A DNA stretch of 16,297 nt, taken from Abditibacteriaceae bacterium. Its GTDB lineage: Bacteria > Armatimonadota > Abditibacteriia > Abditibacteriales > Abditibacteriaceae. Under the pieces are notes generated by a model. That model did no database searches and was not told the DNA's origin. It saw nothing but the letters and a program-made list of their open reading frames with translations. Shown here piece after piece: positions 1 through 16,297 of the stretch (within the stretch, counting starts at the first letter, position 1; the number at the start of each line of letters is the position of its first letter). The DNA is taken from the NCBI GenBank assembly GCA_031425655.1, contig JANPJS010000002.1:1-16297 (forward strand). Direction: 5' to 3'. Both the position numbers and the translations under genes were made by a program.

Positions 1-87
1 GAATCTATTTTGCGATCCGCTTGGTAAGAGCAATGGGGGCGCAAAATAGATTCTTCCGGGTGCCCTCTGGGCAGGACTCAGAATGAC
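1..87. repeat. Partial REP/MITE-like palindromic element, truncated at the window start
   Basis: Perfect 14-bp inverted repeat GAATCTATTTTGCG (1-14) / CGCAAAATAGATTC (40-53). It is followed by AGATTCTTC...CTCAGAATGAC (48-87) with an inner hairpin TGCCC-TCT-GGGCA (61-73). Resembles the GTCATTCTGAG...GAAGAATCT class of intergenic repeats (from recall). Confidence 0.6.
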
Positions 88-163
88 ACAACTCCTTTGC
101 CTTCCCGTGATTCGCAGGCTAATGGCTGCGCCTATCATAACCGACTGCGTAAGGCGAGTCTTT

Positions 164-205
164 AACTCAAAACTCAAAACTCAAAACTCAAAATTCATAA
201 TTCAT
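164..205. repeat. Heptamer tandem repeat (STRR-like)
   Basis: AACTCAA x4 (164-191) followed by AATTCAT x2 (192-205). Confidence 0.9.
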
Positions 206-217
206 AATTTTTTCAGC

Positions 218-231
218 GGCGCGCGATTTGC
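218..231 (+). promoter_or_regulatory. Putative sigma-54 (RpoN) -24/-12 promoter
   Basis: GGCGCG-CGAT-TTGC has exact GG-N10-GC spacing (consensus TGGCACG-N4-TTGC). The predicted start near 243 lies just ahead of the RBS (GAAGGTG 247-253) and ATG 260. The same motif recurs at 4089-4102. Confidence 0.6.
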
Positions 232-259
232 CAATTCAGCGGCGCGGAAGGTGATTGCT

Positions 260-541
260 ATGTCTCTCGGTGAATTTGTCGTTTTGTTTATTGTTTCGGC
301 GATTGTCGGCGCCATCGGCGAGGCTCTGGTTGGCTATTCGCTCGGCGGTTGCGCCATCAGCGCGGTTGTCGGATTCATCGGCGCGCTGATCGGAACCTGG
401 CTTAAAGGCGTGCTGAATATGGGAAACCTGCTCCCGGTTAACATGGGCGGGCGCACCATTGACATCGTGTGGGCCGTCATCGGCAGCGCGCTGCTGGTTT
501 TCATTTTGGGCCTCGTTCGCCGACGCCGAACCGTTGTCTGA
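260..541 (+). CDS. GlsB/YeaQ/YmgE family (transglycosylase-associated) stress-response membrane protein, 93 aa
   Basis: Three Gly-rich hydrophobic helices (IVSAIVGAIGEALV, VVGFIGALIGTWL, IVWAVIGSALLVFILGLV) and an Arg-rich tail. RBS before ATG 260. The ORF-track start at 83 reads through the heptamer repeat. Confidence 0.85.
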   Translation: MSLGEFVVLFIVSAIVGAIGEALVGYSLGGCAISAVVGFIGALIGTWLKGVLNMGNLLPVNMGGRTIDIVWAVIGSALLVFILGLVRRRRTVV

Positions 542-560
542 CGCGGCAGTCGCCAGAAAC

Positions 561-602
561 AAAAAGCGCCCCGGCTTCCAGCGAAGCCGGGGCGCTTTTT
601 TT
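561..602. terminator. Bidirectional intrinsic terminator
   Basis: 18-bp perfect stem AAAAAGCGCCCCGGCTTC (561-578) / GAAGCCGGGGCGCTTTTT (583-600), loop CAGC, with A and T tracts at the ends. It lies between convergent stops at 541 and 607. Confidence 0.92.
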
Positions 603-606
603 CTGT

Positions 607-978
607 TTAGTCTCCGATTCTCCGCGCTTTCGCGGTGTCTCCGTTCGTGGTCATTTCCATGACGCCCCAGTGTATTCGGACTTTTGTGACGTAAATCAGA
701 GGTGTCGGGCGATACTTTGAAGGAGCGTTATCAGTTACTTCGATGGCGTTGTCGCTCAGAAAACGATACCGCCTTTTGTCGGGTTTGCCGTTTTGGCTGA
801 TGAACAGTTCATTTCCATGCACACGAAAAGCGAACACACCAGCTTCATTGCGCCATCTCCCAGAAATATTCTCCCGCACATCTTCTTCGTGTGAAAGAAG
901 CGCCCAAACCACGAATACCAGCACCGGCAAGCATAAGAAAATGACTTCTCCTACTTTCAATCGGCTTCGATTGCTCAT
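607..978 (-). CDS. Hypothetical membrane-anchored protein, 123 aa
   Basis: N-terminal TM segment (VIFLCLPVLVFVVWALL) followed by ISGRW and beta-strand-like sequence. Starts 6 nt after the kinase stop and ends at the terminator. Confidence 0.65.
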   Translation of the reverse strand: MSNRSRLKVGEVIFLCLPVLVFVVWALLSHEEDVRENISGRWRNEAGVFAFRVHGNELFISQNGKPDKRRYRFLSDNAIEVTDNAPSKYRPTPLIYVTKVRIHWGVMEMTTNGDTAKARRIGD

Positions 979-984
979 AGAAAC

Positions 985-2940
985 TCACCCTATCGTCGCC
1001 TGCAAGTTTTCGTTGACCATGCGGCAAAGGCGTTCGGGATCGAAGGGTTTAACTAAGACCGGACGCCCGGTTTTTTCGAGAAAAGCGCGCGTCGAGGCCG
1101 ACATGGTATCGCCGGTCACGAAGATCACTTTGGGCAGCAAATTGGGATGCGAGGTTTGCAGCGCCTCGAAGAACGTCGGGCCGCCGACGGCGGGCATTCG
1201 CACGTCGCTGACGATGAGATCGAAATCTTCATGTTCGAGCAACGCAAGGGCTTCGGCGCCGTTGTAAGCCGCCGTCACGCGATGGCCTTCGCCGGCCAAA
1301 ATTTCGGTCATCAGCAGCACGATTGGCTCTTCGTCGTCTATGACCAAAACGTGGCTGTGCGGCGCAGACCGCGCTTTGGCATTGGGCGATGCCGGCTCTT
1401 GCGAAGCGCCGATTCCGGCTACGGGCAATTCGATAATAAACGTCGCGCCGCTGCCGAGGCGACTTTCAGCCCGAATAGTGCCACCGTGATTGGCGATGGT
1501 CCGATGCGCCAGGCTCATGCCCAGGCCTGTGCCTTTTCCGGGCGGTTTGGTCGTGAAAAACGGGTCAAAAATGCGCCGCAAATACTCCGCTGGAATGCCC
1601 GGCCCATCGTCGCGCACCGTCAAACGAACCAAAAACTGCCCGGCCAAGTGAATCGCTTCGGTGCGAATGAAAATTGTGCCGTTTTCGCTATGATTCTGCG
1701 CATCGCGGATGGCGTGAATGCCGTTGTTAACGATATTAAGCAGCACTTGCTGTAAACCGGCGGGGTCGCCCCAGATTAACGGCAGATTTTCGGCGCAATC
1801 GCTTTCAATTTCCACATTGTCTTTTTCCAACTGGAAAGCGCGCATTCCCAGCACGGCGCGCACCACGTCGTTGAGATCGAGATGCGTTTTTTCCAATGTG
1901 GTGCGGCGCGAAAAGTCGAGCAGACTTTGCACGATTTGCGAAGCGCGCTGCGCCTCGTGGTTGACGGCGTGAACCTGCCTTTGCAAATGCGAAGGCAGCG
2001 TCGAATCGGTTTCGAGCAACTGCGCGTAGCCCACGACGGTCGCCAAAGGATTGTTCAACTCGTGCGCTACGCCCGACAAAAGTTCGCCTAAAGCCGCTAA
2101 TTTTTCGGCTTGAATGACTTGCTCTTGCAAAAGCCGCGACTCGGTGACATCGCGCAACACACCAATGCGCTGCGCGCGGTCAACGCGGTCGAGATCGTCG
2201 TCCGAGCGCAAAACGAAGCTGGTTTCCACGAAAATGCGCTCCGGCACCTGACAGCGAAACTCGCCCCGCCGAAAATCGAGCGAGGGCAAGCTGTCTTCGA
2301 GGCGCTTTTCGCTTTCCAGTTCGAGATATTCCGGCAGCGAAGTAAAAAGCGCGCGGCGCTCCTGGCCAACGATTTCGCGCAGCGGCACCGCAATCAGTTG
2401 GGACAGCGCCAGATTCGCGCGCAAAATGACGCCATCGGCGTCGTAGATAAAAATGCCGTCGGCCATGCCGTCGAACACGGTTTCCCATTCGCGCTTGGCC
2501 CGTTCGAGCTGATCGAAAAGCCGCGCTTTTTCCAGCGCGACACCGGCCTGCTCCCAGAGCATTTTCGACAGCGCAGCCGCGTCTTCACGCAAGCGAGGCG
2601 TTGCCACGCGCAAAACCGCGACGTTCTGGCCGCGCAAAGCTAAGGGCCAGGTGCATTCTTCCGATGCCTGCCGAAGTTCGCCGATAAACAGCCAGTCGTC
2701 TTCGTTGTCCGGCCATTTCGAGAACGATAAATCGCGCAGCGGCGCGATTTCGTCGCGCAGCACGGCGGCTAAGGCTTCGCGGTGCAAGGCCAATTGCGCG
2801 CTGCCGTTTTCCCGCGCGCACAAGCGCGCGGCCTGCTCGGTGAAGGTTTCTAAAAGCTCGTGCAGCGAAGCCGCGCTATGTAGTGCCAGTGTCGCGCTGT
2901 GCAGAACTTCCAGCGCGACGGGCGAAAACGAAGTTTCCAT
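985..2940 (-). CDS. Cytoplasmic hybrid sensor histidine kinase (degenerate GAF-like region, PAS, HisKA, HATPase, receiver), 651 aa
   Basis: PAS ([25 protein letters not shown]), H-box ([14 protein letters not shown]), N-box ([11 protein letters not shown]), G1 (DDGPGI), F/G2 ([17 protein letters not shown]), receiver ([24 protein letters not shown]). No TM helix seen. Confidence 0.93.
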
Positions 2941-2978
2941 GTCTTTTCAGCCTGCGGCACTTTGGCCAATCGAGGCCA

Positions 2979-3983
2979 TTACGCATCCGTTTTCAGCCAT
3001 TTCAACACGATGGCGTCGAACTTTTCGGGATGCTCGGCGTGCGGCATCAGCATGGCGTTGTCTACGACTTCGAGGTGCGCGGACGGCTGCAAAGCCAACC
3101 ATTCGGGAGCCATATCTACCGGTGTCAGCAGCGCGTTGCGGCCCCAGACGAGCAAAGCCGGCACGCTGATTTTCGCCCAATCTTCGAGAGGATCGCAATC
3201 GTTGGCGCCGCCTAAAAACGCCGTCAGCGCATGACGGGCGCCGGGTTGATGCGCCGCAATGGAATGGCGCGCGATAAAAGCGTCATCCACGCGCGTTTTG
3301 TCGAAAAACAGGTGGCGGCGCGAGAATTCTTCGATGCTGCGCCGCGAAGCGAGAGTGTTATAAAGCGTCTGGCCCACAACGGGCAAATTGAAAAGACTAT
3401 GCGCCACTTTCGATTGCGCCTGACGAATCGCGGGATCGGAATCGCGCAGCGTCGGGCAGACGAAGACGAAATTCGTAAACAAATCCGGTCGCCGCGTGGC
3501 CGCACTGAGGGCAAAACACGCGCTCTGATTCGAGGCGATGACCGCACACGGCGCGCCGATCACGTCTTCGATGAAATATTCGACTTGCTCGGCATAAGTT
3601 TCAATTCCGTAAGTGCTTTCCGGCTTATCCGAAGCGCCCCAGCCCAGAAAATCCAGCGCGTAAACCGTGAAATGCTGCGCGAGTTCCTGAAAATTGCCCT
3701 GCCACTCGGCCATCGAGTTGCCGGCGCCCAGCCCGTGCAGCAGCAAAAGCGGCGGGCCGTCGCCGGCCACGGTATAAGCGATGTCACCCTGACGCGCCGG
3801 ATAACGATTGAAAACGCCGCCCAAAAGGTCGTCGGGCGGCGGCGTTTTCAGCGCGATATAAGTGTTGGCCATCGCAGCGGCGCCAATCGCCGCGCCGACA
3901 AGCCACGCCGCCGTTTTCAAAGCGCCGCAGCAGGATTTGCTTTCGGTTTCAAAGGGTAATTCTTCGGTTTCAGAGTGTCGCAT
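2979..3983 (-). CDS. Alpha/beta fold hydrolase with N-terminal hydrophobic anchor and atypical nucleophile elbow, 334 aa
   Basis: GPPLLLLHGLG, VYALDFLGWGASDKP, PALLVWG and MPHAEHPEKF motifs. The elbow reads VIASNQSA. RBS AAGGA upstream of ATG 3983. Confidence 0.88.
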   Translation of the reverse strand: MRHSETEELPFETESKSCCGALKTAAWLVGAAIGAAAMANTYIALKTPPPDDLLGGVFNRYPARQGDIAYTVAGDGPPLLLLHGLGAGNSMAEWQGNFQELAQHFTVYALDFLGWGASDKPESTYGIETYAEQVEYFIEDVIGAPCAVIASNQSACFALSAATRRPDLFTNFVFVCPTLRDSDPAIRQAQSKVAHSLFNLPVVGQTLYNTLASRRSIEEFSRRHLFFDKTRVDDAFIARHSIAAHQPGARHALTAFLGGANDCDPLEDWAKISVPALLVWGRNALLTPVDMAPEWLALQPSAHLEVVDNAMLMPHAEHPEKFDAIVLKWLKTDA

Positions 3984-4029
3984 TCGTTTTCCTTGCGCGT
4001 TGATTTTTCATCGCAACCTCGCCCCATCC

Positions 4030-4038
4030 ATTTTAACA
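4030..4038 (-). promoter_or_regulatory. Possible extended -10 promoter of the hydrolase-kinase operon
   Basis: Minus strand reads TGTTAAAAT (TGn + TAAAAT), about 45 nt upstream of ATG 3983. Confidence 0.4.
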
Positions 4039-4088
4039 GCCCGCGCCTGCATTCCGAGAATTGCCTTGAGAATCGGCGATTAAGTTTC

Positions 4089-4103
4089 GGCGCGCCTTTT
4101 GCA
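4089..4103 (+). promoter_or_regulatory. Putative sigma-54 (RpoN) -24/-12 promoter
   Basis: GGCGCG-CCTT-TTGCA with exact GG-N10-GC spacing. Predicted start near 4114, upstream of RBS AGGAG (4128-4132) and ATG 4138. Confidence 0.65.
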
Positions 4104-4137
4104 AATGCGGCGCGTGAAATTCCCTCAAGGAGATAAT

Positions 4138-4632
4138 ATGTTAACGATGTTGACCCAACCCAGAACCGCTACCAAGTCCTTCGCGCTTCTGCTTTCGGCC
4201 TCAATTGTGGCGCCGACACTGCTGGCCGGCTGCGGCAACGGCGCACAAACCGACGCGCCGCCACCACCACGCAATGCTTCGTCGAGCGAAATGAGCCGCA
4301 TGAATCAAGGGGCCGCACCGGCCAAGCAGGGCATGAGCACCAAGCAGAAAATGGTGCTGGTCGGCGGCGCTGCCCTGCTGTATTACCTTTACAAAAAGAA
4401 CAAGGCCAAACAGCAGGCCCCGGCGAACGTGCAGTATTACATCTCGAAATCCACAGGCCGCGTTTATTACCGCGACCCACAAACCAAGCAGGCCGTCTGG
4501 ATGACGCCGGAACGTCCACAGCCGATGCAAATCCCAGAATCCGAAGCCTCCGCTTATCGCGATTATCAAGGCTACAACAACCAGTCCACAGGCCGCAGCT
4601 TGCAAGACTCAGGCGAGTTTCAGCTTCAATAG
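4138..4632 (+). CDS. Hypothetical lipoprotein with an internal hydrophobic helix and a WW-domain-like segment, 164 aa
   Basis: AGGAG RBS. Signal peptide with lipobox LLAG-C (Cys codon 4231-4233), then PPPPR, hydrophobic MVLVGGAALLYYLY followed by KKNKAK, and SKSTGRVYYRDPQTKQAVWMTP. Confidence 0.85.
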   Translation: MLTMLTQPRTATKSFALLLSASIVAPTLLAGCGNGAQTDAPPPPRNASSSEMSRMNQGAAPAKQGMSTKQKMVLVGGAALLYYLYKKNKAKQQAPANVQYYISKSTGRVYYRDPQTKQAVWMTPERPQPMQIPESEASAYRDYQGYNNQSTGRSLQDSGEFQLQ

Positions 4633-4650
4633 GAAGCGCAAAGGAGAATC

Positions 4651-4947
4651 ATGAGCCTCAATCCACTCGATTTACTTTTCGGCCAAGTCCGAAAGTCCAT
4701 TGAAAATCAAGCGTCCCCCGACACACCGGGGCCGGCTTTCGATGCCAATCCGCTTTTGGGCATTTTAGGCGGACTTTTTGGCCAGCACGCACAGCAACAA
4801 GGGCAAGACTTCGGCGGTTACAATACCCAATCGTCCGATCAAGACCCGTATGGCGATCCCGGTCTCCGACAGGGCGGCGGCGGCCAGTTCGGCAACGCCA
4901 AATCATCCGACGAAGACCCGTATGGCGATCCCGGTCTCCAGCGTTAA
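4651..4947 (+). CDS. Small acidic Gly/Gln-rich hypothetical protein with two DPYGDPGL repeats, 98 aa
   Basis: Strong RBS AAAGGAGA, start 18 nt after the upstream stop. Repeats NPLDLLFG / NPLLGILGGLFG and SSDQDPYGDPGL / SSDEDPYGDPGL. No signal peptide. Confidence 0.85.
   Translation: MSLNPLDLLFGQVRKSIENQASPDTPGPAFDANPLLGILGGLFGQHAQQQGQDFGGYNTQSSDQDPYGDPGLRQGGGGQFGNAKSSDEDPYGDPGLQR
4841..4939 (+). repeat. Intragenic 27-bp perfect direct repeat
   Basis: AAGACCCGTATGGCGATCCCGGTCTCC at 4841-4867 and 4913-4939 (period 72 nt = 24 codons). Confidence 0.95.
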
Positions 4948-4953
4948 CAACTC

Positions 4954-5070
4954 ACCACAAAGACACGAAGACACAAAGAAACCCCAAAGAAAAAGAGATT
5001 AAAGGATTTTAACTCCCTACGATTTCTTAAAATTCTTTGGGGTTTCTTTGTGTCTTCGTGTCTTTGTGGT
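4954..5070. repeat. CACAAAGA-family palindromic element, copy 1; may act as terminator between convergent genes
   Basis: Perfect 38-bp inverted repeat ACCACAAAGACACGAAGACACAAAGAAACCCCAAAGAA (4954-4991) / 5033-5070 around a 41-nt AT-rich spacer. Confidence 0.92.
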
Positions 5071-6132
5071 TCAACTCACGTCAACAATCGCTTTCACGCA
5101 CGTCGCGCGATTGTCCACGACATATTCAAAAGCCTGAGGCACTTCGGCGAGCGCGAATCGCTTCGAGATCAGCGGCTTGAGATTGACTTTGCCGGACGCG
5201 ATCAGGCTGACACCGGTCGGAAAAGTGTTGTTGTAACGGAAAATTGGGCGCAGCTTGATTTCGCGCACGATCATGTCGTTGATATTCAATGTGGCCGTGT
5301 CATCCGGCGGCATTCCGATGAGAACAACCGTCGCGCCGGGCCGCGCCGCCGCGATGCAAGCGTTGAGCGCGCTGGGATGGCCCGCGCACTCGATGCACAC
5401 GTCGGCGCCGCGCCCGTCGGTGAGTTCGCGTGCGGCGTCGCGCAATTCTTCGGCGCCGCCTTGAATGACTTGCGTGGCGCCGATTTCCTGCGCGACTTTC
5501 AAGCGTTCGGGCACCATATCCGAGATAATCACGTTCGCCGCGCCCGCCGCTTTGACGGCCAGTAAATTCATCAGGCCAATCGGCCCGGCGCCGGTGATAA
5601 CGACCGTATCGCCCATCGTGACCGGCGCCACGCGCGCGGCGAATATGCCGGTCGAAAGCGGCTCAATCAGCGCGCCTTCTTCAAGCGACACGTTATCGGG
5701 CAGCTTGAAGCAAAAATCCGCCGGATGATTGACGAAACCGCAAAACGAGCCGTGATCGGGCGGCGTGGCGAAAAAGAAAATATCCGGGCACAAATTATAT
5801 TCGCCGCGCTTCATGTAATAATGCGAAATATTCGTCGAAAGACGCGGCACGCCCGGTTCGAGGCAAACACGGTCGCCGACCTGCAAATGCGTCACATTCG
5901 CGCCGATTTCGACAATGGTTCCGGCGCATTCGTGGCCCAAAATCATCGGCGCCTTCACGACGAAATCGCCGATGCGTCCGTGTTCCCAATAATGCACGTC
6001 CGAGCCGCAAATTCCGACTTTATTGATGGCGATTTTGACTTCGTTCGGCCCCGGCGCGCCGGGAATCGGCACTTCCTCGACGCGCAAATCTTTCACGCCG
6101 TGCAAAACAGCGGCTTGCATAGTTTTTGACAT
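5071..6132 (-). CDS. Zn-dependent NAD-linked polyol dehydrogenase (sorbitol/xylitol dehydrogenase family), 353 aa
   Basis: GICGSDVHYWEHGRIGDFVVKAPMILGHE, FFATPP, IEPLS, GAGPIG, Asp in ISDMV (NAD preference) and FRYNNTFP. RBS AAAAGGA before ATG 6132. Confidence 0.92.
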   Translation of the reverse strand: MSKTMQAAVLHGVKDLRVEEVPIPGAPGPNEVKIAINKVGICGSDVHYWEHGRIGDFVVKAPMILGHECAGTIVEIGANVTHLQVGDRVCLEPGVPRLSTNISHYYMKRGEYNLCPDIFFFATPPDHGSFCGFVNHPADFCFKLPDNVSLEEGALIEPLSTGIFAARVAPVTMGDTVVITGAGPIGLMNLLAVKAAGAANVIISDMVPERLKVAQEIGATQVIQGGAEELRDAARELTDGRGADVCIECAGHPSALNACIAAARPGATVVLIGMPPDDTATLNINDMIVREIKLRPIFRYNNTFPTGVSLIASGKVNLKPLISKRFALAEVPQAFEYVVDNRATCVKAIVDVS

Positions 6133-6168
6133 GGAAATCCTTTTAATCAGCCAAGAGTTTCGCAAACA

Positions 6169-6231
6169 TTAAACACAAAGACACAAAGACACAAAGAGAT
6201 TTTCTTCGTGTCTTTGTGCCTTTGTGTTTAA
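6169..6231. repeat. CACAAAGA-family palindromic element, copy 2
   Basis: 29-bp inverted repeat with 2 mismatches: TTAAACACAAAGACACAAAGACACAAAGA (6169-6197) / 6203-6231. Arms are built from 8-nt ACACAAAG units. Confidence 0.9.
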
Positions 6232-6269
6232 AAATATTTAATCTGTGCGATGCGTGATGCGTTCCGCTC

Positions 6270-7247
6270 TCACGCTTTTTTCTGCCACTGATCGAAGGCG
6301 ACGGCGGCGATAATCAGCACGCCGACGATGATTTGCTGCACGAACGAATCCACACTCATCAAACTGGCGCCGTTTTTCAACACCGCGATGACCAAAGCGC
6401 CGATAACGGTGCCGGCAATGCTGCCGACGCCGCCAAAAAGTGACGCACCGCCGATAACGACGGCAGCGATGGCATCCAATTCGGCGCCCATTCCGGCTCC
6501 CGGCTGTGCCGAAATGCTGCGCGACACGTCAATCATGGCCGCGACACCCGCCAAGGCGCTGGTGAGAATGTAGACGAAAAACAAGGTTTTGCGCTGGTCA
6601 ATGCCCGCGAAGCGCGCCGCCTGAGGATTGCCGCCCACCGCATAAATCGTGCGCCCGATTACGGTTTTGTTCAGCACCATGTAGCAAAGTAATCCGACGA
6701 TAATAATGATCCAGAGCGGCACAGGAAGCCTCAGAAAATTGCCTTCGCCCAGCCAGCCGATGCCTTGCGCGGTTACGTCTACAGAACCGCCGTGCGAAAT
6801 GATATTAGTCGCGCCGCGTGCGATGCCCATCGTGCCCAAAGTCGCAATGAACGGCGGCAGGCGCAGAATCCCAATTAGAAAGGCGTTGACCATGCCGCAC
6901 AAAGCGCCGGCAAAAACGCCGATGGTCATGGCAACGGGCACCGTTAGGCCCAGTCCGCCTTTCGTGGCCGGAATCATGAGCAGCGCCGAAATCATGCCTG
7001 TAAAAGCAGCCACACTGCCCACGCTGAGGTCAATACCGCCGCTGATAATGACCAACGTCATGCCGAACGCGATGAGCAAAATCGCCGATTGCTGGCGCGC
7101 GATGTTGAAGATGTTTTCGGTCGAGAGAAACAGGTTTTCGCCCTCCGGCCCACGAGGTGCTTTGATCGAAAAGAAAACGACCAGCACCAGCAATCCGGCC
7201 AAAGGCAGCAGGCGGCGCAACAGTGAAGAGATTTGTGTGTTGGACAT
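6270..7247 (-). CDS. Monosaccharide/polyol ABC transporter permease (RbsC family), about 325 aa
   Basis: GMTLVIISGGIDLSVGS, LPPFIATLGTM, GRTIYAVGGNPQAARFAGI and ELDAIAAVVIGGASLFGG. Start placed at ATG 7247; the alternative GTG 7322 lies within the repeat. Confidence 0.92.
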   Translation of the reverse strand: MSNTQISSLLRRLLPLAGLLVLVVFFSIKAPRGPEGENLFLSTENIFNIARQQSAILLIAFGMTLVIISGGIDLSVGSVAAFTGMISALLMIPATKGGLGLTVPVAMTIGVFAGALCGMVNAFLIGILRLPPFIATLGTMGIARGATNIISHGGSVDVTAQGIGWLGEGNFLRLPVPLWIIIIVGLLCYMVLNKTVIGRTIYAVGGNPQAARFAGIDQRKTLFFVYILTSALAGVAAMIDVSRSISAQPGAGMGAELDAIAAVVIGGASLFGGVGSIAGTVIGALVIAVLKNGASLMSVDSFVQQIIVGVLIIAAVAFDQWQKKA

Positions 7248-7250
7248 TGC

Positions 7251-7326
7251 GAGTGACGAGTGATGAATTACGAGTGACGAATTACGAATGAAACTCGTCA
7301 CTCGTAATTCGTAACTCGTCACTCAC
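7251..7326. repeat. Inverted heptamer repeat array
   Basis: GAGTGAC/GAGTGAT/GAATTAC units at 7251-7285, then reverse-complement units ACTCGTC/ACTCGTA/ATTCGTA at 7293-7326, able to fold into an imperfect hairpin. Confidence 0.88.
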
Positions 7327-7327
7327 T

Positions 7328-8368
7328 TTAGCCTTGCAGCCATTCTTTGTTTTCCGGCTTGTCAATGTCTTCAGTCGTCAGCAGTTTCACGCCGGTGTCA
7401 ATGCGCGGCTTAACTTCTTTACCGGCTTTCTTATCGGCAATGGCTTTGACGCCTTCGTAACCCATCTTGAATGGATTTTGCACAATGATGGAATCCACGT
7501 CGCCTTTCCGCACCGCTTCGACTAAGATGTCGGGCGTATCGAAGCCGATAACTTTGATTTTGCCTAACTTCTGGCGCGAACGTATGGCATTGAGCGCGCC
7601 GACCGCCGAGCTTTCGTTTGAGCCGAAAATCGCCAGCATATTGGGGTGCGCGGTCAGCATATCCTGCGCCACGGTCATGCTTTTCTTGCGGTCGCTTTCG
7701 CCGAATTGCGAGATGATGACTTTCACTTTGCCGCCGGACAACGCTTTGATTTTGTCGGTGAAGCCTTTTTCGCGCTTTTCGGTAGATTCGGAGTTGGCCT
7801 GCACCGGCACCATGCCAATGGGGCCTTTGCCGCCCGTCAATTTCCAGATGCGCTCGGCAGCCATCGCGCCGCCGATTTCGTTGTCGGTGGCAACATAAGA
7901 AATGCGATTTTTCGTGTCGGCATCGCTGTCGGCGATGACAACCGGAATGCCTGCTTTAGCCGCTTTATCAATGGCCGGCACCAGCGCGGTTTTGTTGTTG
8001 GGCGCGATGACAATGCCGTCCACTTTTTTGGTGATCTGGTCTTCGACGATTTGCTGCTGCTGTTTGGTGCCGTCGCTTTCGCTGGCCGGGCCGACCCAGA
8101 TGATTTCCGCGTTCATCTCGCTGCCGGCCTTTTCCGCGCCGCGCCGAATGGCCTGCCAGAACGAATGCGTGAGTCCTTTGGGAATCACGGCAATCCGCAT
8201 CTTTGCGTCGCCCGCACCGCCGCTTGTCGCTGCCGGCGAAACGCTGTTCGTAACCGGCGCTGCTGCTTCCGGCGGGTTTCCATTGCCGCAGCCACCCAAA
8301 ACCAACGCGCCGCCCAACAACACCGAAGCCGCGCTCAGCGGCGCCGTCCGTGCAAAAAACCGAGTCAT
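7328..8368 (-). CDS. Sugar ABC transporter substrate-binding lipoprotein (RbsB-like), about 346 aa
   Basis: Lipobox LVLGG-C, IAVIPKGLTHSFWQAI, VDGIVIAP, YVATDN, VIGFD and IVQNPFKMGY. AAGGAG at 8375-8380 favours ATG 8368 (8371 possible). Confidence 0.92.
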   Translation of the reverse strand: MTRFFARTAPLSAASVLLGGALVLGGCGNGNPPEAAAPVTNSVSPAATSGGAGDAKMRIAVIPKGLTHSFWQAIRRGAEKAGSEMNAEIIWVGPASESDGTKQQQQIVEDQITKKVDGIVIAPNNKTALVPAIDKAAKAGIPVVIADSDADTKNRISYVATDNEIGGAMAAERIWKLTGGKGPIGMVPVQANSESTEKREKGFTDKIKALSGGKVKVIISQFGESDRKKSMTVAQDMLTAHPNMLAIFGSNESSAVGALNAIRSRQKLGKIKVIGFDTPDILVEAVRKGDVDSIIVQNPFKMGYEGVKAIADKKAGKEVKPRIDTGVKLLTTEDIDKPENKEWLQG

Positions 8369-8410
8369 CATGCGCTCCTTGAAAATTCTTTGAGGGAAAA
8401 TGTCAAGCCT

Positions 8411-8419
8411 ATTATAACA
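8411..8419 (-). promoter_or_regulatory. Extended -10 sigma-70-type promoter for the polyol ABC operon
   Basis: Minus strand reads TGTTATAAT (TGn + perfect TATAAT), about 40 nt upstream of the SBP start. Confidence 0.55.
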
Positions 8420-8528
8420 ACCGCTTCCTTCGGTTAAAAACATTTTAAGAACGCGACTCAACGGTTTCAACGGCATTTGGACGCCGCGCCGGACGCACAT
8501 CGCGCTAAACTGGCGCCAACCAACCCTC

Positions 8529-9374
8529 ATGCTGACCTACGATCCGGCCTCAACTGCGGCCACACGCGCCATTCTGCACGAACTCGGCGCCGCGCCCAAT
8601 CGCACGATGGGCCAGAATTTTCTGACCAACGGCGGCGCTCTCGACCGCATCGTGTCCACGGCGAAAATCGGCACCTCCGACACGGTTTTGGAAATCGGCC
8701 CCGGTTTGGGCGCGCTCACCACGCGACTTGTGCAACGCGCCGCGCAGGTGACGGCCATCGAAAAAGACGCGCAGTTTTTGGATTTACTGCGCGAAAAACT
8801 GCCGTCTCTGCATTTAATTCCCGGCGATGCGCTGAAAGTGGCGTGGGAAGAACTCGGCTTGCCCGAATCGGGCGTTAAAGTCGCGGCGAATCTGCCCTAC
8901 TCGATTTCCAAGCCGATGCTGCGCCGCCTGATGGAAGATTGGCGCCCGCATTTGCACAGCGCAACGCTGACGGTGCAGCGCGAAGTGGCCGAACGCATCG
9001 TGGCCAGTCCGAACACTTCGGCTTACGGCCCGATGGCGATTATGTGTGCGCTGCACGGCCATGCGAAGCGCGTTTTCGACATCGCGCCCGGCTCGTTTTT
9101 GCCGCCGCCCGCCGTGACTTCGTCGGTGGTTCACATCGTTATGCGCGAGCAGCCGGCGGTTGAAATCGCCGACGAAGCGTTTTTCTGGCGCGTGATCAAC
9201 GCCGCTTTCGGACAGCGCCGCAAGCAACTCGCAAACACGCTGCGCGCGGTTATCGCCGACAAAGCGCAACTGGCCGAAGCGTTAAATTCTGTGGATATTG
9301 ACCCGCTGCGGCGCGGCGAAACACTGTCGCTGCAAGAGTTCGCAGCATTGTCGCGGCGCTTGAGCGAAAATTAA
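8529..9374 (+). CDS. rsmA: 16S rRNA m6,2A1518/A1519 dimethyltransferase RsmA (KsgA), 281 aa
   Basis: GQNFL, VLEIGPGLGALT, AIEKD, ANLPYSIS, QREVAERI, SFLPPPAVTS, FGQRRKQL and RGETLS motifs. Confidence 0.96.
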   Translation: MLTYDPASTAATRAILHELGAAPNRTMGQNFLTNGGALDRIVSTAKIGTSDTVLEIGPGLGALTTRLVQRAAQVTAIEKDAQFLDLLREKLPSLHLIPGDALKVAWEELGLPESGVKVAANLPYSISKPMLRRLMEDWRPHLHSATLTVQREVAERIVASPNTSAYGPMAIMCALHGHAKRVFDIAPGSFLPPPAVTSSVVHIVMREQPAVEIADEAFFWRVINAAFGQRRKQLANTLRAVIADKAQLAEALNSVDIDPLRRGETLSLQEFAALSRRLSEN

Positions 9375-9381
9375 AGGCACC

Positions 9382-10185
9382 ATGGCAAAACTCGGCTTTA
9401 TTCATTACAACTGGCCCGGCTTTTCGTTCGATGATTTCCTGCGTTTCGCCAGCGAAAACGGCGCCGATTACGTCGAACTGCAACTGACCGACGTGTGCGA
9501 AAACGACGCTTTCGACGAAGAACGTGCCGCCGATGTGCGCCAGAAAGTCGAAAGTTACGGCCTCAAAGTCTCGGCTCTGGCCTCGCGCAACGACTTCGTG
9601 CAAGCCGACCCCGAAGCCGTCGCATTTCAGGTAGATCGCATGAAAAACGTTGCACAACTGGCAACAATTCTCTGCGACGAGCCGATTTTGCGAAGCGAAG
9701 GCGGACAGCCCAAAGACAGCGTGCCGCCCGAAAACTGGGGCGATGCGCTTTACGAATGCTTCGCGCGCTGCACTGGCTTCGCGGAGCAAATGGGCGTCAC
9801 TTTAGCGATTGACAACCACGGCATCGTCACCAATAACGGCGATTTGCTGATCGCGCTTTTGCGGCGCGTCAACCATCCGCGCATCGGCTCCAATTTGGAC
9901 ACCATGAACTTCCGCTGGGCCGGAAATTCCATCGCCGATTGCAACCGCTTCTACGAAGAACTGGCTCCGTTCGTCAAACACACGCATTTGAAAGATGGCT
10001 TCGGCAGTTTCAAGGATTATCGCGGCACGGCACTCGGCGACGGTGAAATTGATTTGCAACACGCGCTTATTTCGCTGAAAAATGCGGGTTACAACGGCGT
10101 TTATTTAGCCGAATACGAAGGCGAAGAAACTGCCGGCGGCATCGGCTATGGCAAGTGCATCGAGTGGATGAAGGTCAATGTCTGA
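9382..10185 (+). CDS. Sugar phosphate isomerase/epimerase (xylose isomerase-like TIM barrel), 267 aa
   Basis: GADYVEL, LAIDNHG, NLDTMNF, HTHLKD, LGDGEID and GYNGVYLAEYE. RBS AAAGG. Confidence 0.88.
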   Translation: MAKLGFIHYNWPGFSFDDFLRFASENGADYVELQLTDVCENDAFDEERAADVRQKVESYGLKVSALASRNDFVQADPEAVAFQVDRMKNVAQLATILCDEPILRSEGGQPKDSVPPENWGDALYECFARCTGFAEQMGVTLAIDNHGIVTNNGDLLIALLRRVNHPRIGSNLDTMNFRWAGNSIADCNRFYEELAPFVKHTHLKDGFGSFKDYRGTALGDGEIDLQHALISLKNAGYNGVYLAEYEGEETAGGIGYGKCIEWMKVNV

Positions 10186-11089
10186 CCACTTCTTCGATCT
10201 TCAAGTCAACGGTTACGCGGGCGTGGATTTCAACCGCGACGGCTTGACCGGCGAAGAACTACATCGCGCCTGCACAGCGCTCAAAGCGGCGGGAGTCATC
10301 GGCTTTTTGCCGACGATTATCACCGAACACATCCCCGTTATGGCGCGGCGCTTGGAAACGCTGGCGCGGCTGCGCGAAGCTGACCCGTTGGCCCGTGCGC
10401 TGATTCGCGGCTTTCACATCGAAGGCCCGTTCATCTCGCCGCTCGACGGTTTTCGCGGCGCGCACCCCGCCGATGCGATTCGCGCCGCCAATCTTGATGA
10501 GATGAAAGTGCTGCTCGACGCCGCGCAAGGCTTGGCAAAACTCGTCACGATGGCGCCCGAATGCGACGAAGATTTCGCCGTGACGCGCTTTCTCAGCGCG
10601 CAAAACATCCGCGTTGCGGCGGGGCACAGCGATGCTTCACTCGATCAGCTACGCGGCGCGTTGGACGCTGGATTATCGCTGTTCACGCATTTGGGCAACG
10701 GCTGTCCGATGCTGCTGCCGCGCCACGATAACATCGTGCAACGCGCGCTGAGTCTGGAAAAACTCAAGTTGTCGTTTATTGCCGACGGCGCGCATATTCC
10801 GTTTTTTGCGCTCAAAAATCACATTCGCGGGGCAGGAATCGAACGCTGTATCATCGTCACCGACGCGATTGCGCCAGCCAGTCTGGGGCCGGGACGCTAC
10901 ACGATGGGCCGTTGGGAATTGGAAATCGGCGCCGACATGGTGGCAAGGGCGCCGGACGGCTCGCATTTGGTCGGCGCTGCCATCACCATGCCGCAAAGCG
11001 CGCAGAATTTAGTCGAACATCTTGCCTTGTCGGAAAGCGATGTGCGCCGATTGACGTGGGATAATCCGCGCACATTTTTGGAAACGTGA
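10178..11089 (+). CDS. nagA: N-acetylglucosamine-6-phosphate deacetylase (short form), 303 aa
   Basis: [52 protein letters not shown] and VTDA. Overlaps the upstream gene by 8 nt. Confidence 0.88.
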
Positions 11090-11094
11090 GTTCA

Positions 11095-11174
11095 AACACA
11101 AAGGACACGAAGGCGGCACAGAGGCCACAAAAAACTTTGTGCCCCTTTGTGAAATCCTTTGTGCTCTTTGTGTT
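11095..11174. repeat. CACAAAG-family palindromic element, degenerate copy 3
   Basis: AACACAAAGGACACGAAGGCGGCACAGAGGCCACAAAA followed by inverted CTTTGTG units ending CTCTTTGTGTT. Confidence 0.8.
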
Positions 11175-11186
11175 AAAAGTTTCAAA

Positions 11187-11918
11187 ATGCAAATCATCAT
11201 TAGCGAAAACAAAACCGAAAGCGGCTTCCGCGCCGCACACGACGGTGCAGCTTCCATTCGCGCCGCCATTGCCGAAAACGGCGCCGCCAATATCATCGTG
11301 GCAACCGGCGCCTCGCAATTTGAAATGTTAGCCGCCCTTGTGCGCGAAGACCTGGATTGGTCGCGCGTGACCGGCTTTCACTTGGACGAATATATCGGAG
11401 TGCCGCTGACGCATCCGGCCTCGTTTCGCAAGTATTTGAAAGAGCGATTCGTGGATTTGCTGCCGTTAGCCGCGTTTCACTACGTCAGCGGCGAAGGCGA
11501 CGCGCAGGCCGAATGCGACCGCTTGGGCGAGATTATCGCGCAGTTTCCGATTGATGTAGCCTTTGTCGGCATCGGCGAAAATGGCCACTTGGCCTTCAAC
11601 GATCCACCCGCCGATTTCGCAACGCCCGCGCCTTATCTCGTGGTCAATTTGGACGACGATTGCAAAGCGCAGCAAATGGGCGAAGGCTGGTTCCCAACGC
11701 TGAATGACGTGCCATCGCAGGCGATTTCGATGGGAATTCAACAGATTCTAAAATCACGCGCCATCGTTTGCACCGTGCCCGACGAGCGCAAAGCCGTCGC
11801 GGTGAAAAACACCGTCGAAGGCGCAATTACGCCCGATGTGCCCGCTTCGATTCTGCAAACGCACGCGGCAACGACGCTTTATCTCGACCGGCCCGCCGCT
11901 TCGCTTTTATCCCAATGA
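11187..11918 (+). CDS. nagB: Glucosamine-6-phosphate deaminase, 243 aa
   Basis: [39 protein letters not shown] and [11 protein letters not shown] 11187 chosen because the ORF-track start 11139 lies in the repeat. Confidence 0.88.
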
Positions 11919-13714
11919 AACACCTGATTTTGGCGTTTTTGCTGTGCGCGGTGCCGACTTTTGCTCAACCCAAACCCATGTTTCAACTGCGTCCGCCCGC
12001 CGCATCACCGTTTCCCATCGCGCTCGATGCCGCGCAAAAAGCGCGCTTAAACGAAGCCCTCAAAGGCCAGCACGCGGCTTACGATGCCGACGCGCAAATG
12101 CTGAAAAAGCCTTTCAATTCACCGGGCTACCACACCACGCTCAAAGGCGGCACCGTTCATCCTACGCGCGATGCCGCCGCTTATGCCGCCGCGATTCTCG
12201 ACACCGGCGACGCGGAACTGCAAACGCGGGCCGAAGGTGTGCTTCGCAAAATCGTCAGCTTGCAAGACACCAATCCCGAATCGAAAACTTACGGCATCTG
12301 GTCGTGGTTTCATGAAGAACCACTGGCGCAAATGGCGCCGCCCGACTGGAACTGGGCCGATTTTATCGGCGTGCAGCTTTTGCAAGTCGCGCTTTCGCAC
12401 CGCGAACGATTGCCCGCCGATTTGCTGACACAAATTGACGCCGCTATCGGCCACGCCTGCCGCGCCATCATCAAACGCAATGTCGGGCCGGGCTATACCA
12501 ACATCGCCATCATGGGCACTTATGTCACCCTTGTGGCTGGCGAGCTTTACGATTGCGCCGAGTTCCGCGATTACGGCTTGCAGCGATTGAAAAACTTTCA
12601 TGCTTTCACGCTGAAGCACGGCGCGTTTTCGGAATACAACAGCCCAACTTATACCTTCGTCGCTCTCGAAGAAATCGGGCGTTTGCGCGCCAATGTTCGC
12701 ACGCCCGAAGCCAAGCCGCTCGTCGAAGATATTTATCGCGTGGCGTGGGAAGAAATTGCCCATCATTTTCACGCGCCGACGCGCCAATGGGCCGGGCCGC
12801 ATTCGCGCGCTTACCGCTCGCTGCTCGGCGGCAACGTCTTAGCGCAAATCGAACGCTCGACAGAAGGCCGCGTAAAATTTGGCGAGAAAACCGCGCCGAA
12901 TCTGACCGAACATCGCCTGCCGCTGCCCTGCCCGCGCGATTTGGAGCCGTATTTCACGAAATTAGACGCACCGCGCGAGTTCGTAAAAACCTTTGTGCGC
13001 GATGCAAACCCGGTCGTCGGCACGACGTATTTAGCGCCGCAATTCGCATTGGGCACTATTAATCGCGGCGATTTGTGGAATCAGCGTCGCGCACTCATCG
13101 CGTATTGGGGCGACGCCAAAACGCCAAGCTATCTGCATCTACGCTTCCTTCACGATGGCTACGATTTTTCCGCCGCGCAGTTTTTCAGCGCGCAAAAAGG
13201 CGGCAGCGCGCTGTGCGCCATCAACTTCGCGCTGGACGGCGGCGACACGCACGTCAGCCTCGACCGCATCAAAAACGCCACCATTAAAGCCAAAGATTTG
13301 CGCCTTCGCTTTGAATTCGGCGGCGCAGCAGGTAAAACCGTGCCGCTGGCTCCACCAAAATCGTTTGCGCCCACGCATTTGCGATTTGGTAACGTCAATC
13401 TGCAAATTTCTGTGCCCTGGGCACACTTCGGCGACCTTTCCGGGCGTTGGGAAGCCGTCCAAAAAGACGATAAAGCATGGTTGGATTTCGTGTTTTATTC
13501 AGGCGAAGAGCGCGATTTCAACTTCGCAGAAATACAGAATGCCGCGATTGCTATCGCGGTGCAATTCAGCGTGGGCGACGCTCCATTTACACTGCCGACT
13601 GAGCATCAAAGGGACGGGCGTTTGGCTGTGAAGTGGGATAATCTGAGCATTGAAATTCCGACTAAGCCCGGCAAAGTCGCCGAGTTGCAAAAAGATTTTA
13701 AGGCAAGCCGGTAA
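11915..13714 (+). CDS. Secreted hypothetical protein, possibly heparinase II/III-like polysaccharide lyase fold, 599 aa
   Basis: ATGA overlap with the nagB stop. Signal peptide [18 protein letters not shown]. Helical N-half with DWNWADF, YTNIA, EYNSPTY and GPHSRAY; beta-rich C-half. The CDS itself is well supported; the product is inferred. Confidence 0.75.
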
Positions 13715-13720
13715 TGTAAA

Positions 13721-13852
13721 TTTTTGCCGGGCGACTAAAGTCGCAGCAACAAAGCAGCAAAGCCCGCCTGCGCGGGCTAAAATTCGAGTTTGTTAGCCTC
13801 CGAAGGGAGGCTTTGCTGCTTTGTTGCTGCGACTTTAGTCGCCCGGCAAAAA
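13721..13852. repeat. REPIN-like doublet of inverted REP units
   Basis: Perfect 44-bp inverted repeat (13721-13764 / 13809-13852). Each arm carries the hairpin GCGAC-TAAA-GTCGC. Inner hairpins are AGCCCGC-CTGC-GCGGGCT (13761-13778) and AGCCTCC-GAAG-GGAGGCT (13795-13812). Confidence 0.9.
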
Positions 13853-13876
13853 AACGAAGGCGCACAAGCAATTTCC

Positions 13877-16270: not shown

Positions 16271-16272
16271 CG

Positions 16273-16297
16273 CCCTCACCCCCGGCCCCTCTCCCAA
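16273..16297. repeat. Start of a CCCTCACCCC...CCCTCTCCC intergenic palindromic repeat, truncated at the window end
   Basis: CCCTCACCCCCGGCCCCTCTCCC directly after the stop codon. The complementary GGGAGAGGG arm would fall outside the window. Confidence 0.6.

Follow-up and report, generated by a model that had tools for sequence, protein, structure and literature searches.

Within a stretch of 16,297 nucleotides from an Abditibacteriaceae bacterium of the Armatimonadota (contig JANPJS010000002.1, positions 1 to 16,297 of the forward strand; hereafter the window), two short genes, designated gene 1 and gene 2, follow each other on the same strand (Table 1). An earlier note, made from the letters of the window alone, had described them as two genes 18 nt apart, each behind a strong ribosome-binding site, and had assigned to gene 1 a lipobox, the peptide PPPPR and a hydrophobic helix followed by KKNKAK; all of these features were recovered at the positions reported. 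Both genes are real and belong to nameless families, and together they form a conserved, self-contained two-gene module that extends across three phyla.

Table 1. Features of the window, listed by position.
Feature	Position	Strand	Description
Transgly_assoc gene	83-541	+	GlsB/YeaQ/YmgE-type small membrane protein
Histidine kinase gene	985-2940	-	PAS hybrid histidine kinase with receiver domain
Hydrolase gene	2979-3983	-	alpha/beta hydrolase, divergent from gene 1
Shine-Dalgarno site, gene 1	4127-4132	+	AAGGAG, 5 nt ahead of ATG; read from sequence
Gene 1 (P0001)	4138-4632	+	164-aa lipobox protein with hydrophobic helix and WW-like domain
Signal peptide, gene 1	4138-4233	+	ends in lipobox L-L-A-G-C32
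PPPPR, gene 1	4258-4272	+	residues 41-45, inside low-complexity Pro-rich tether
Hydrophobic core, gene 1	4351-4392	+	14 residues, M72-Y85, within predicted helix 68-92; AlphaFold2, conservation, hydropathy
WW-like three-stranded sheet, gene 1	4429-4509	+	residues 98-124; Y110, Y111, R112 invariant; W121; P124
C-terminal extension, gene 1	4510-4629	+	conserved; helix 134-140, Y140, Y146-x-N-N; alignment and AlphaFold2
Stop codon, gene 1	4630-4632	+	TAG, followed by 18-nt spacer to gene 2
Shine-Dalgarno site, gene 2	4641-4646	+	AAGGAG, 4 nt ahead of ATG; read from sequence
Gene 2 (P0002)	4651-4947	+	98-aa acidic protein
Helical hairpin, gene 2	4663-4797	+	predicted helices 5-21 and 33-49; AlphaFold2
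Motif copy 1, gene 2	4822-4866	+	NTQSSDQDPYGDPGL, residues 58-72
Motif copy 2, gene 2	4894-4938	+	NAKSSDEDPYGDPGL, residues 82-96, 2 residues short of the C-terminus
Palindrome	4954-5070	.	38-bp arms, between convergent gene 2 and Zn-dehydrogenase gene; dispersed repeat copy
Dehydrogenase gene	5071-6165	-	Zn-dependent dehydrogenase, convergent with gene 2

The N-terminal part of the gene 1 product agrees with the lipobox pattern [LVI][ASTVI][GAS]C, and lipidation of the protein is predicted. In an alignment of 31 sequences G31, C32 and G33 were at least 90% conserved, and a lipobox-like pattern was detected in 59 of 65 orthologues. Inspection by eye of the six orthologues without a match showed frames that were truncated or contained N, one G-G-A-C form, and two sequences that the regular expression had failed to catch. 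The Pro-rich tether was variable in wording: PP[PAV] occurred at most 30 residues from the lipobox Cys in 38 of the 59 lipobox orthologues and a PPPVDDT-like motif in 24 of them, relatives often carrying PPPVDDTR instead of PPPPR. Between the tether and the apolar stretch M72-Y85 lies a conserved G-M-S-T-x-x-K cap, and KKNKAK stands directly behind this stretch. The C-terminal extension of approximately 40 residues was always found behind the WW-like part. An AlphaFold2 model of gene 1, computed from the 31-sequence alignment, had a mean predicted local distance difference test score (pLDDT) of 64.3 and a predicted template modelling score of 0.27, with a pLDDT of 70-83 in the C-terminal part and low values elsewhere. 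It contained helix 68-92, strands 100-102, 109-112 and 119-121, and helix 134-140.

The gene 2 product holds two copies of SSD(Q/E)DPYGDPGL, as the earlier note had said, and these appear in the DNA as a 47-nt direct repeat (4821-4867 and 4893-4939, 87% identical). Its N-terminus is not hydrophobic, in agreement with the previous statement that a signal peptide is lacking. The claim that the protein looks disordered held for the repeat tail, where pLDDT falls below 50 from residue 60, but not for residues 1-50 (pLDDT 74-84), in which the two helices form a hairpin predicted with a pLDDT of about 80. This hairpin is kept in Armatimonadota and Myxococcota; in Microcoleaceae the protein has one short helix and four or five motifs. 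Across 80 gene 2 loci 154 motif instances were counted, two copies in 61 proteins and from one to five overall, and in 78 of the 80 loci the last copy ended 2-9 residues before the C-terminus. The motif, with a consensus of about 14 residues, (V/I)x(P/S)(A/S)S(Q/E)DPYGDP(A/G)D, had been searched for with a pattern that itself fixed D, G, D and P, so that conservation was counted beyond those residues. Among the 154 instances the flanks were conserved as V/I at -6, P/S at -4, A/S at -3, S/D at -2, Q/E at -1, A/G at +6 and mostly D at +7. Since the remainder of gene 2 varies between phyla while the motif flanks are conserved, the motif is the constrained element of the protein.

Both genes are present in single copy in their own genome. 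In a collection of 5.8 billion protein sequences, 61 relatives of gene 1 and 161 of gene 2 were found; those that bear a name are listed as hypothetical, with an organism label (Abditibacteriota or Abditibacteriaceae) added for two relatives of gene 2. Of 1.84 billion cluster representatives (50% identity), only 179 matched the gene 1 profile at E ≤ 0.001. No Pfam or NCBIfam family reached its cut-off with gene 1, and none matched gene 2. StpX (NCBIfam NF051869) was considered for gene 1 and rejected, the match giving 25 bits against a cut-off of 450 and covering residues 19-91 only. A search of PDB sequences with the gene 2 profile gave 0 matches at E ≤ 10. Neighbours of gene 1 in a language-model atlas were cyanobacterial hypothetical proteins or lipoproteins (score 0.80) and the best score for gene 2 was 0.82, with no family; both are leads only. 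A wide VIA-align search with the gene 1 model reached a best Z of 3.4 and was uninformative, because the long helix dominated its rows. When other domains naturally fused to gene 2 were looked for, the single match was P0332, an artefact: the database proteins P0332 and P0286 both proved to be frameshifted read-throughs of gene 1 into gene 2.

Co-inheritance of the two genes

The gene 1 and gene 2 profiles were run on 201 Armatimonadota genomes at E ≤ 0.001. Gene 1 was matched in 54 genomes, in 42 of them strongly and over the full length (E ≤ 1e-28); the remaining 12 gave weak, partial matches confined to the signal-peptide end. Gene 2 was matched in 43 genomes, namely the same 42 and, weakly, one more (G011). 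In the families that are only partly occupied, the two genes were found in identical genomes (f6, 4 of 7; f7, 4 of 10; f13, 2 of 7; f29, 8 of 11), indicating joint gain and loss. The two were adjacent on one strand, gene 1 first, in 36 of the 42 genomes. Among 301 Cyanobacteriota genomes gene 1 occurred in 30, and gene 2 in 29 of these and in no other genome; all 29 pairs were adjacent in the same order. The earlier note had proposed co-occurrence and adjacency as a check on its idea of an operon, and this expectation was borne out in both phyla and in Myxococcota too. Its mention of DPYGDP-repeat proteins in cyanobacteria was likewise correct.

A scan with the gene 2 pattern, with one genome per species, revealed 461 relatives, and the best 80 loci were analysed. 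Gene 1 stood directly upstream of gene 2 in 64 of these best 80 loci; 4 of the other 16 lay too near a contig end to tell and 12 belonged to the Capsulimonadaceae/Armatimonadales group. According to their record titles, the 64 paired loci came from Armatimonadota/Abditibacteriota (43), Cyanobacteriota (10), Myxococcota (7) and a Janthinobacterium-labelled bin (1), with 3 unlabelled, and the cyanobacterial loci include Microcoleus, Lyngbya sp. CCAP 1446/10 and a Gloeobacterales bin. All-against-all clustering of the flanking open reading frames (ORFs) at the 80 loci found no third family common to the phyla, the next clusters being antisense ORFs that shadow gene 1 and locally syntenic genes of Abditibacterium. 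The two genes probably function as a pair.

On the gene 1 tree the myxobacterial rows formed one clade (support 98/97) and the cyanobacterial rows were compatible with one group; no donor is named, because the position of the root is not known. The Janthinobacterium-labelled locus (L090, titled as a metagenome-assembled genome of Janthinobacterium lividum) carries a pair that nests within the Capsulimonadaceae clade of this tree. To judge by this placement, its contig was probably mis-binned and is not evidence for the pair in Pseudomonadota.

In the genome of Phormidesmis priestleyi BC1401 (G204, locus L100), five gene 1 matches were located on the small contigs C148, C152, C153, C192 and C145; three of the five score identically, which may reflect redundancy of the assembly or several copies. 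A second gene 1 copy in G438 (C78:82436-82882) and the sole copy in G308 (C2:59415-59870) had no gene 2 match at E ≤ 0.001, and these copies could carry a diverged or missed short partner.

The WW-like domain and the apolar helix

The C-terminal part of gene 1 contains the stretch V-Q-Y-Y-I-S-K-S-T-G-R-V-Y-Y-R-D-P-Q-T-K-Q-A-V-W-M-T-P, which the earlier note had called a WW-like segment. Three concordant signals, weak and independent of each other, point to this fold. Pfam WW (PF00397) aligned to gene 1 over profile positions 9-28 with E = 0.016, the four top chains of a PDB profile search were WW domains of PRP40/FBP11 (E = 0.029-0.52), and 43 of the 47 Foldseek matches listed were WW domains or WW-containing proteins. 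The three strands of the AlphaFold2 model make up a predicted sheet of about 30 residues at a pLDDT of 70-83. A central aromatic pair (Y110 and Y111, both invariant), a second Trp and a nearby Pro were all found, the window reading W-M-T-P. W121 was at least 90% conserved in the 31 sequences; in the 65 orthologues this position was W in 44, Y in 11 and F in 6, with 4 unresolved.

A strict assignment is opposed by the level of these matches and by one residue. Pfam WW scored 15.7 bits against a gathering cut-off of 26.9, it reached E ≤ 0.1 in only 5 of the 31 family members (best 0.0081), and the best Foldseek E value was only 0.39. Moreover, where the WW signature has its first Trp, the gene 1 family has Q-Y-Y or Q-L-Y. 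Because the scores are below threshold and the first Trp is absent, the domain is called WW-like and not a member of PF00397. The C-terminal part of gene 1 is best taken, from sequence and model, as a putative divergent WW-like domain.

The same module was also found in other Armatimonadota proteins. By eye, the unit shared by these paralogues consists of a helix with a G-A-A-x-x-Y pattern, the WW-like sheet and a Y-x-G-Y-N tail, and it is C-terminal in proteins with a signal peptide. Helix, sheet and extension are homologous to those of gene 1 (E = 1e-10 to 1e-30). Unlike gene 1, the fused paralogues have neither lipobox nor tether, their helix is less hydrophobic and often charged (that of several contains Lys, Glu, Asp or His), and they are clearly extracytoplasmic. 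Signal-peptide proteins of 380-570 aa ending in the module include L114:3980-5398 (-), L115:4042-5181 (-), P0238, P0266, P0274, P0277, P0308, P0312 and others. The partners within these proteins are sub-threshold DUF1559-like stretches, or Trypsin_2 together with an NlpC/P60 part; some DUF1559-like paralogues have an ending that we take to be H-x9-DG-like. In some, a C-terminal BON domain stands behind the module, that of P0312 scoring 30.3 bits (cut-off 27). A WW-like stretch was furthermore observed in L113:1047-5804 (+), at frame residues 1173-1239, inserted inside or beside the TED region of a 1586-aa bacterial alpha-2-macroglobulin from a related genome, with MG2, A2M, bait-region, TED and bMG10 domains. 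Bacterial alpha-2-macroglobulins of this class are periplasmic. No DPYGDP gene was seen beside the paralogues in the three loci examined (L113-L115). The usual home of the helix and the WW-like sheet is extracytoplasmic.

The side of the membrane on which the WW-like domain of gene 1 resides depends on the helix in front of it, in which G77, A78, A79, Y83 and Y85 were invariant in the 31 sequences. The earlier note had placed the domain in the cytoplasm by the positive-inside rule. This argument fails for the family as a whole, since the charge of the helix flanks is equal (mean K+R 2.80 before and 2.85 after in 65 orthologues) and the C-terminal flank is the richer one in only 25 of the 65. 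A membrane span would agree with the aromatic Y-Y-L-Y belt that closes the stretch, with the Lys/Arg behind it, and with an apolar character stronger than that of the paralogue helix: the gene 1 stretch lacks charged residues in 59 of 64 adjacent orthologues, with a mean Kyte-Doolittle value of 1.73, compared with 1.12 for the same helix in 15 fused paralogues, 6 of which carry charges. The gene 1 stretch is thus either a membrane span or a structural helix. If the helix spans, its orientation would be set by the N-terminal signal; the chances that it is a true span, putting the WW-like domain inside, appear about evenly balanced.

Besides the lack of charge bias, several points speak against a cytoplasmic position of the domain. 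The apolar stretch measures just 14 residues, with Lys on both sides, and in 5 of the 64 orthologues, all from Abditibacterium, Lys occupies its second position. In the paralogues helix and WW-like sheet are plainly exported, with a charged helix, and therefore the WW-like domain of gene 1 may be periplasmic as well, while the gene 2 product has no export signal in any phylum. If gene 1 were wholly periplasmic, the two proteins would not meet. All of this would fit products that are co-expressed in different compartments without binding each other, gene 1 as a wholly periplasmic lipoprotein whose helix is structural or oligomerising and gene 2 as a cytoplasmic, acidic, disordered protein, for example as the envelope arm and the cytoplasmic arm of one stress programme. 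The exported paralogues with their charged helices, the BON domain behind the module and the alpha-2-macroglobulin insertion argue for such a separation, as do the shortness of the stretch, its flanks and the missing signal peptide of gene 2. However, the strict order and near-perfect co-occurrence of the genes in three phyla would rather be expected of physical partners, an entirely apolar helix of four turns would be unusual for a soluble monomer, and a motif of about 14 residues needs a conserved reader, gene 1 being the only conserved neighbour. We regard separation without contact as the main alternative to binding, and as somewhat unlikely.

Possible contact between the products and genomic surroundings

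The reading that we tentatively put forward, and hold to be quite possible while falling short of probable, is a receptor-ligand pair in which the WW-like domain of gene 1 binds the DPYGDP motif of gene 2. According to this proposal, the Sec/lipoprotein signal would direct gene 1 to the cytoplasmic membrane, on whose outer face the lipobox Cys would anchor the N-terminus. The Pro-rich tether would come next, and then the short apolar helix, probably as a stop-transfer span. An aromatic groove of Y110, Y111 and W121, with K104, R108 and R112 as conserved basic residues beside it, could bind the acidic Asp-Pro/Tyr motif, and with 2-5 motifs per gene 2 protein the repeat protein would be held multivalently at the membrane. 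In its widest form the proposal has a WW-like receptor at the cytoplasmic face and a multivalent disordered DPYGDP ligand building a membrane-attached scaffold or condensate, the two genes having travelled together between Armatimonadota, filamentous cyanobacteria and Myxococcota; as a whole this combination seems rather unlikely.

Against binding through the motif it has to be said that the motif contains no PPxY, PPLP or S/T-P and is longer than the usual WW ligands. In addition, a full-length gene 2 was located elsewhere in 6 of the 42 Armatimonadota genomes, five of a single genus (G130, G066, G112, G166 and G121) and G040. Of the three inspected, G130 and G112 still have a short one-motif DPYGDP ORF directly behind gene 1, whereas in G121 no such ORF was seen. 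Contact between the two products is something that we infer, as are the membrane side and the physiological role, which is possibly related to the envelope or to stress; a stress role would be speculation. Two further analyses left the balance as it was. A complex prediction with gene 1 residues 93-164 and the full-length gene 2 alignments gave 0.06 against a mark of 0.32, which speaks neither for nor against contact. Covariation between the gene 1 residue after Y-Y-R-D and motif position +6 (P/G 23, A/A 19, P/A 13, A/G 4, other 4) had no power, because only 3-4 of the pairs are phylogenetically independent.

The two proteins might also bind each other through their helices, the second helix of gene 2 (LLGxLGGLFG) packing, at or within the membrane, on the G-A-A-x-L-Y-Y helix of gene 1, while the DPYGDP repeats would bind cations or another partner or would keep the tail hydrated. 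Both helices are Gly/Ala-rich and conserved, the gene 2 hairpin is confidently predicted, and the motif is rich in Asp, with a DxDxxGD spacing that we take to be loosely like that of calcium-binding loops. Cyanobacterial gene 2 proteins, however, lack the second helix and still adjoin gene 1, with more copies of the motif, indicating that the conserved element is the motif and not the hairpin. Contact by way of the helices is accordingly judged quite unlikely.

Another possibility is that gene 2 is a multi-core precursor similar to those of ribosomally synthesized and post-translationally modified peptides, giving rise to secreted or modified peptides with gene 1 as an accessory. Such a precursor would be consistent with a conserved N-terminal part and with the 2-5 core-like, nearly identical repeats behind it. 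Yet no modifying enzyme, protease or transporter was conserved beside the pair in the 80 loci, and the N-terminal part of gene 2 is not conserved between phyla, which makes this explanation highly improbable. Motif binding by the WW-like domain is the best supported of these readings.

The 38-bp hairpin that the earlier note had seen as closing the operon was confirmed as a perfect inverted repeat (4954-4991 and 5033-5070, 38 nt, 100% complementary), with a folding energy of -75.2 kcal/mol (z = -13.9). It is not specific to the operon, however: the 128-nt palindrome region had 104 matches in its own 6.0-Mb genome (both strands, self included), and, being dispersed through the genome, it says nothing specific about the operon. 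A 23-nt core of the arm occurs again at 6174-6196 and 6204-6226 of the window, against a chance expectation of none, and a degenerate copy was noticed by eye near 11094-11176. The arms are built on CACAAAGACAC(G/A)AAGACACAAAG, and the sites lie between convergent or adjacent genes. The palindrome looks like a dispersed intergenic repeat of the type of repetitive extragenic palindromes or miniature inverted-repeat transposable elements, and it may act as a two-way terminator or transcript stabiliser.

The neighbours of the pair in the window are ordinary and were not conserved with it across phyla. A promoter and terminator scan of positions 3900-5200 showed one weak sigma-70-like site (4033-4061) and no canonical terminator beyond chance. 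Upstream regions were compared for 57 loci, i.e. 55 listed loci, L005 (the window locus itself) and the window row. A GGAG-type ribosome site was present in most of these related loci, and no shared promoter block was seen by eye in the last 45 nt, compared unaligned, of the 57.

In sequencing archives, one DNA sequencing run contained 0.97 of the sampled words and may be the source. Two RNA libraries from one ice metagenome study contained contigs 95-99% alike over positions 4392-4631; in one of these contigs 32 further letters, unlike the window, read an AAGGAG site and ATGAACCTCAA, which is the start found in close relatives of gene 2. Because the contigs show no single transcript and DNA is possible in such libraries, they give at most a weak hint of expression in a relative, and stretches that no contig covers carry no information.

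Comparison with known systems

Gene 2 shares Gly/Leu-rich N-terminal helices with YidB/DUF937-type small proteins (PF20159). In one cluster of its language-model neighbours PF20159 was annotated in 14% of the members, at a score of 0.76, which is below a meaningful level and a lead only. Unlike proteins of this type, gene 2 itself has no Pfam match. The string DPYGDP did not occur in the 8.4 million papers and preprints searched, and the literature on Abditibacterium and desiccation consisted, among the matches listed, of community surveys only.

WW domains are textbook eukaryotic peptide-recognition modules. With the eukaryotic domains of PF00397 (Pin1, PRP40/FBP11, YAP) the gene 1 domain shares a size of about 30 residues, a predicted three-stranded antiparallel sheet, the G-R-V-Y-Y core, the second Trp and the Pro behind it, and these domains were its best matches in sequence and fold. 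In contrast to them, it has Q-Y-Y in place of the first Trp and scores below every threshold. It also always lies between the G-A-A-x-L-Y-Y helix and the extension of about 40 residues, in a bacterial lipobox protein. Whereas eukaryotic WW ligands are of the types PPxY, PPLP or pS/T-P, the candidate ligand of gene 1 is the acidic DPYGDP motif; the D-P of the motif could mimic the pS-P of group IV ligands.

A WW-like fold with a candidate ligand next door was found in about one fifth of the sampled Armatimonadota and about one tenth of the sampled cyanobacterial species. If motif binding at the cytoplasmic face proves true, gene 1 would represent the first family of free-standing WW-like domains in prokaryotes whose ligand is defined genetically; if the domain is periplasmic, the pair would still stand as a tightly co-inherited module of envelope and cytoplasm that calls for an explanation. 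Strains rather than metagenome bins are named in the record titles of several loci (Microcoleus, Lyngbya sp. CCAP 1446/10 and Phormidesmis priestleyi BC1401), and as such named strains carry the pair, two small proteins and one peptide would suffice for a test of the hypothesis.

A literature search for bacterial WW-like lipoproteins found, among the matches listed, nothing relevant beyond one paper (PMC12331936). There, WW domains are said to have been characterised so far only in eukaryotic proteins, and a WW-like loop of a Mycobacterium tuberculosis mannosyltransferase is described as the first functional prokaryotic case (2025; PMC12331936). The C-terminal WW-like domain of loop EL4 in this protein mannosyltransferase resembles gene 1 in being a bacterial WW-like beta element that misses one of the two Trp residues, and it is proposed to read Pro-containing peptides (PMC12331936). 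The mycobacterial element lacks the second Trp, whereas the gene 1 domain lacks the first. The former is, by the account given there, an experimentally supported loop of a large polytopic enzyme, while the gene 1 family is free-standing and known from sequence. Unlike the mycobacterial loop as described in PMC12331936, the gene 1 family has a genetically linked, acidic candidate ligand next door.

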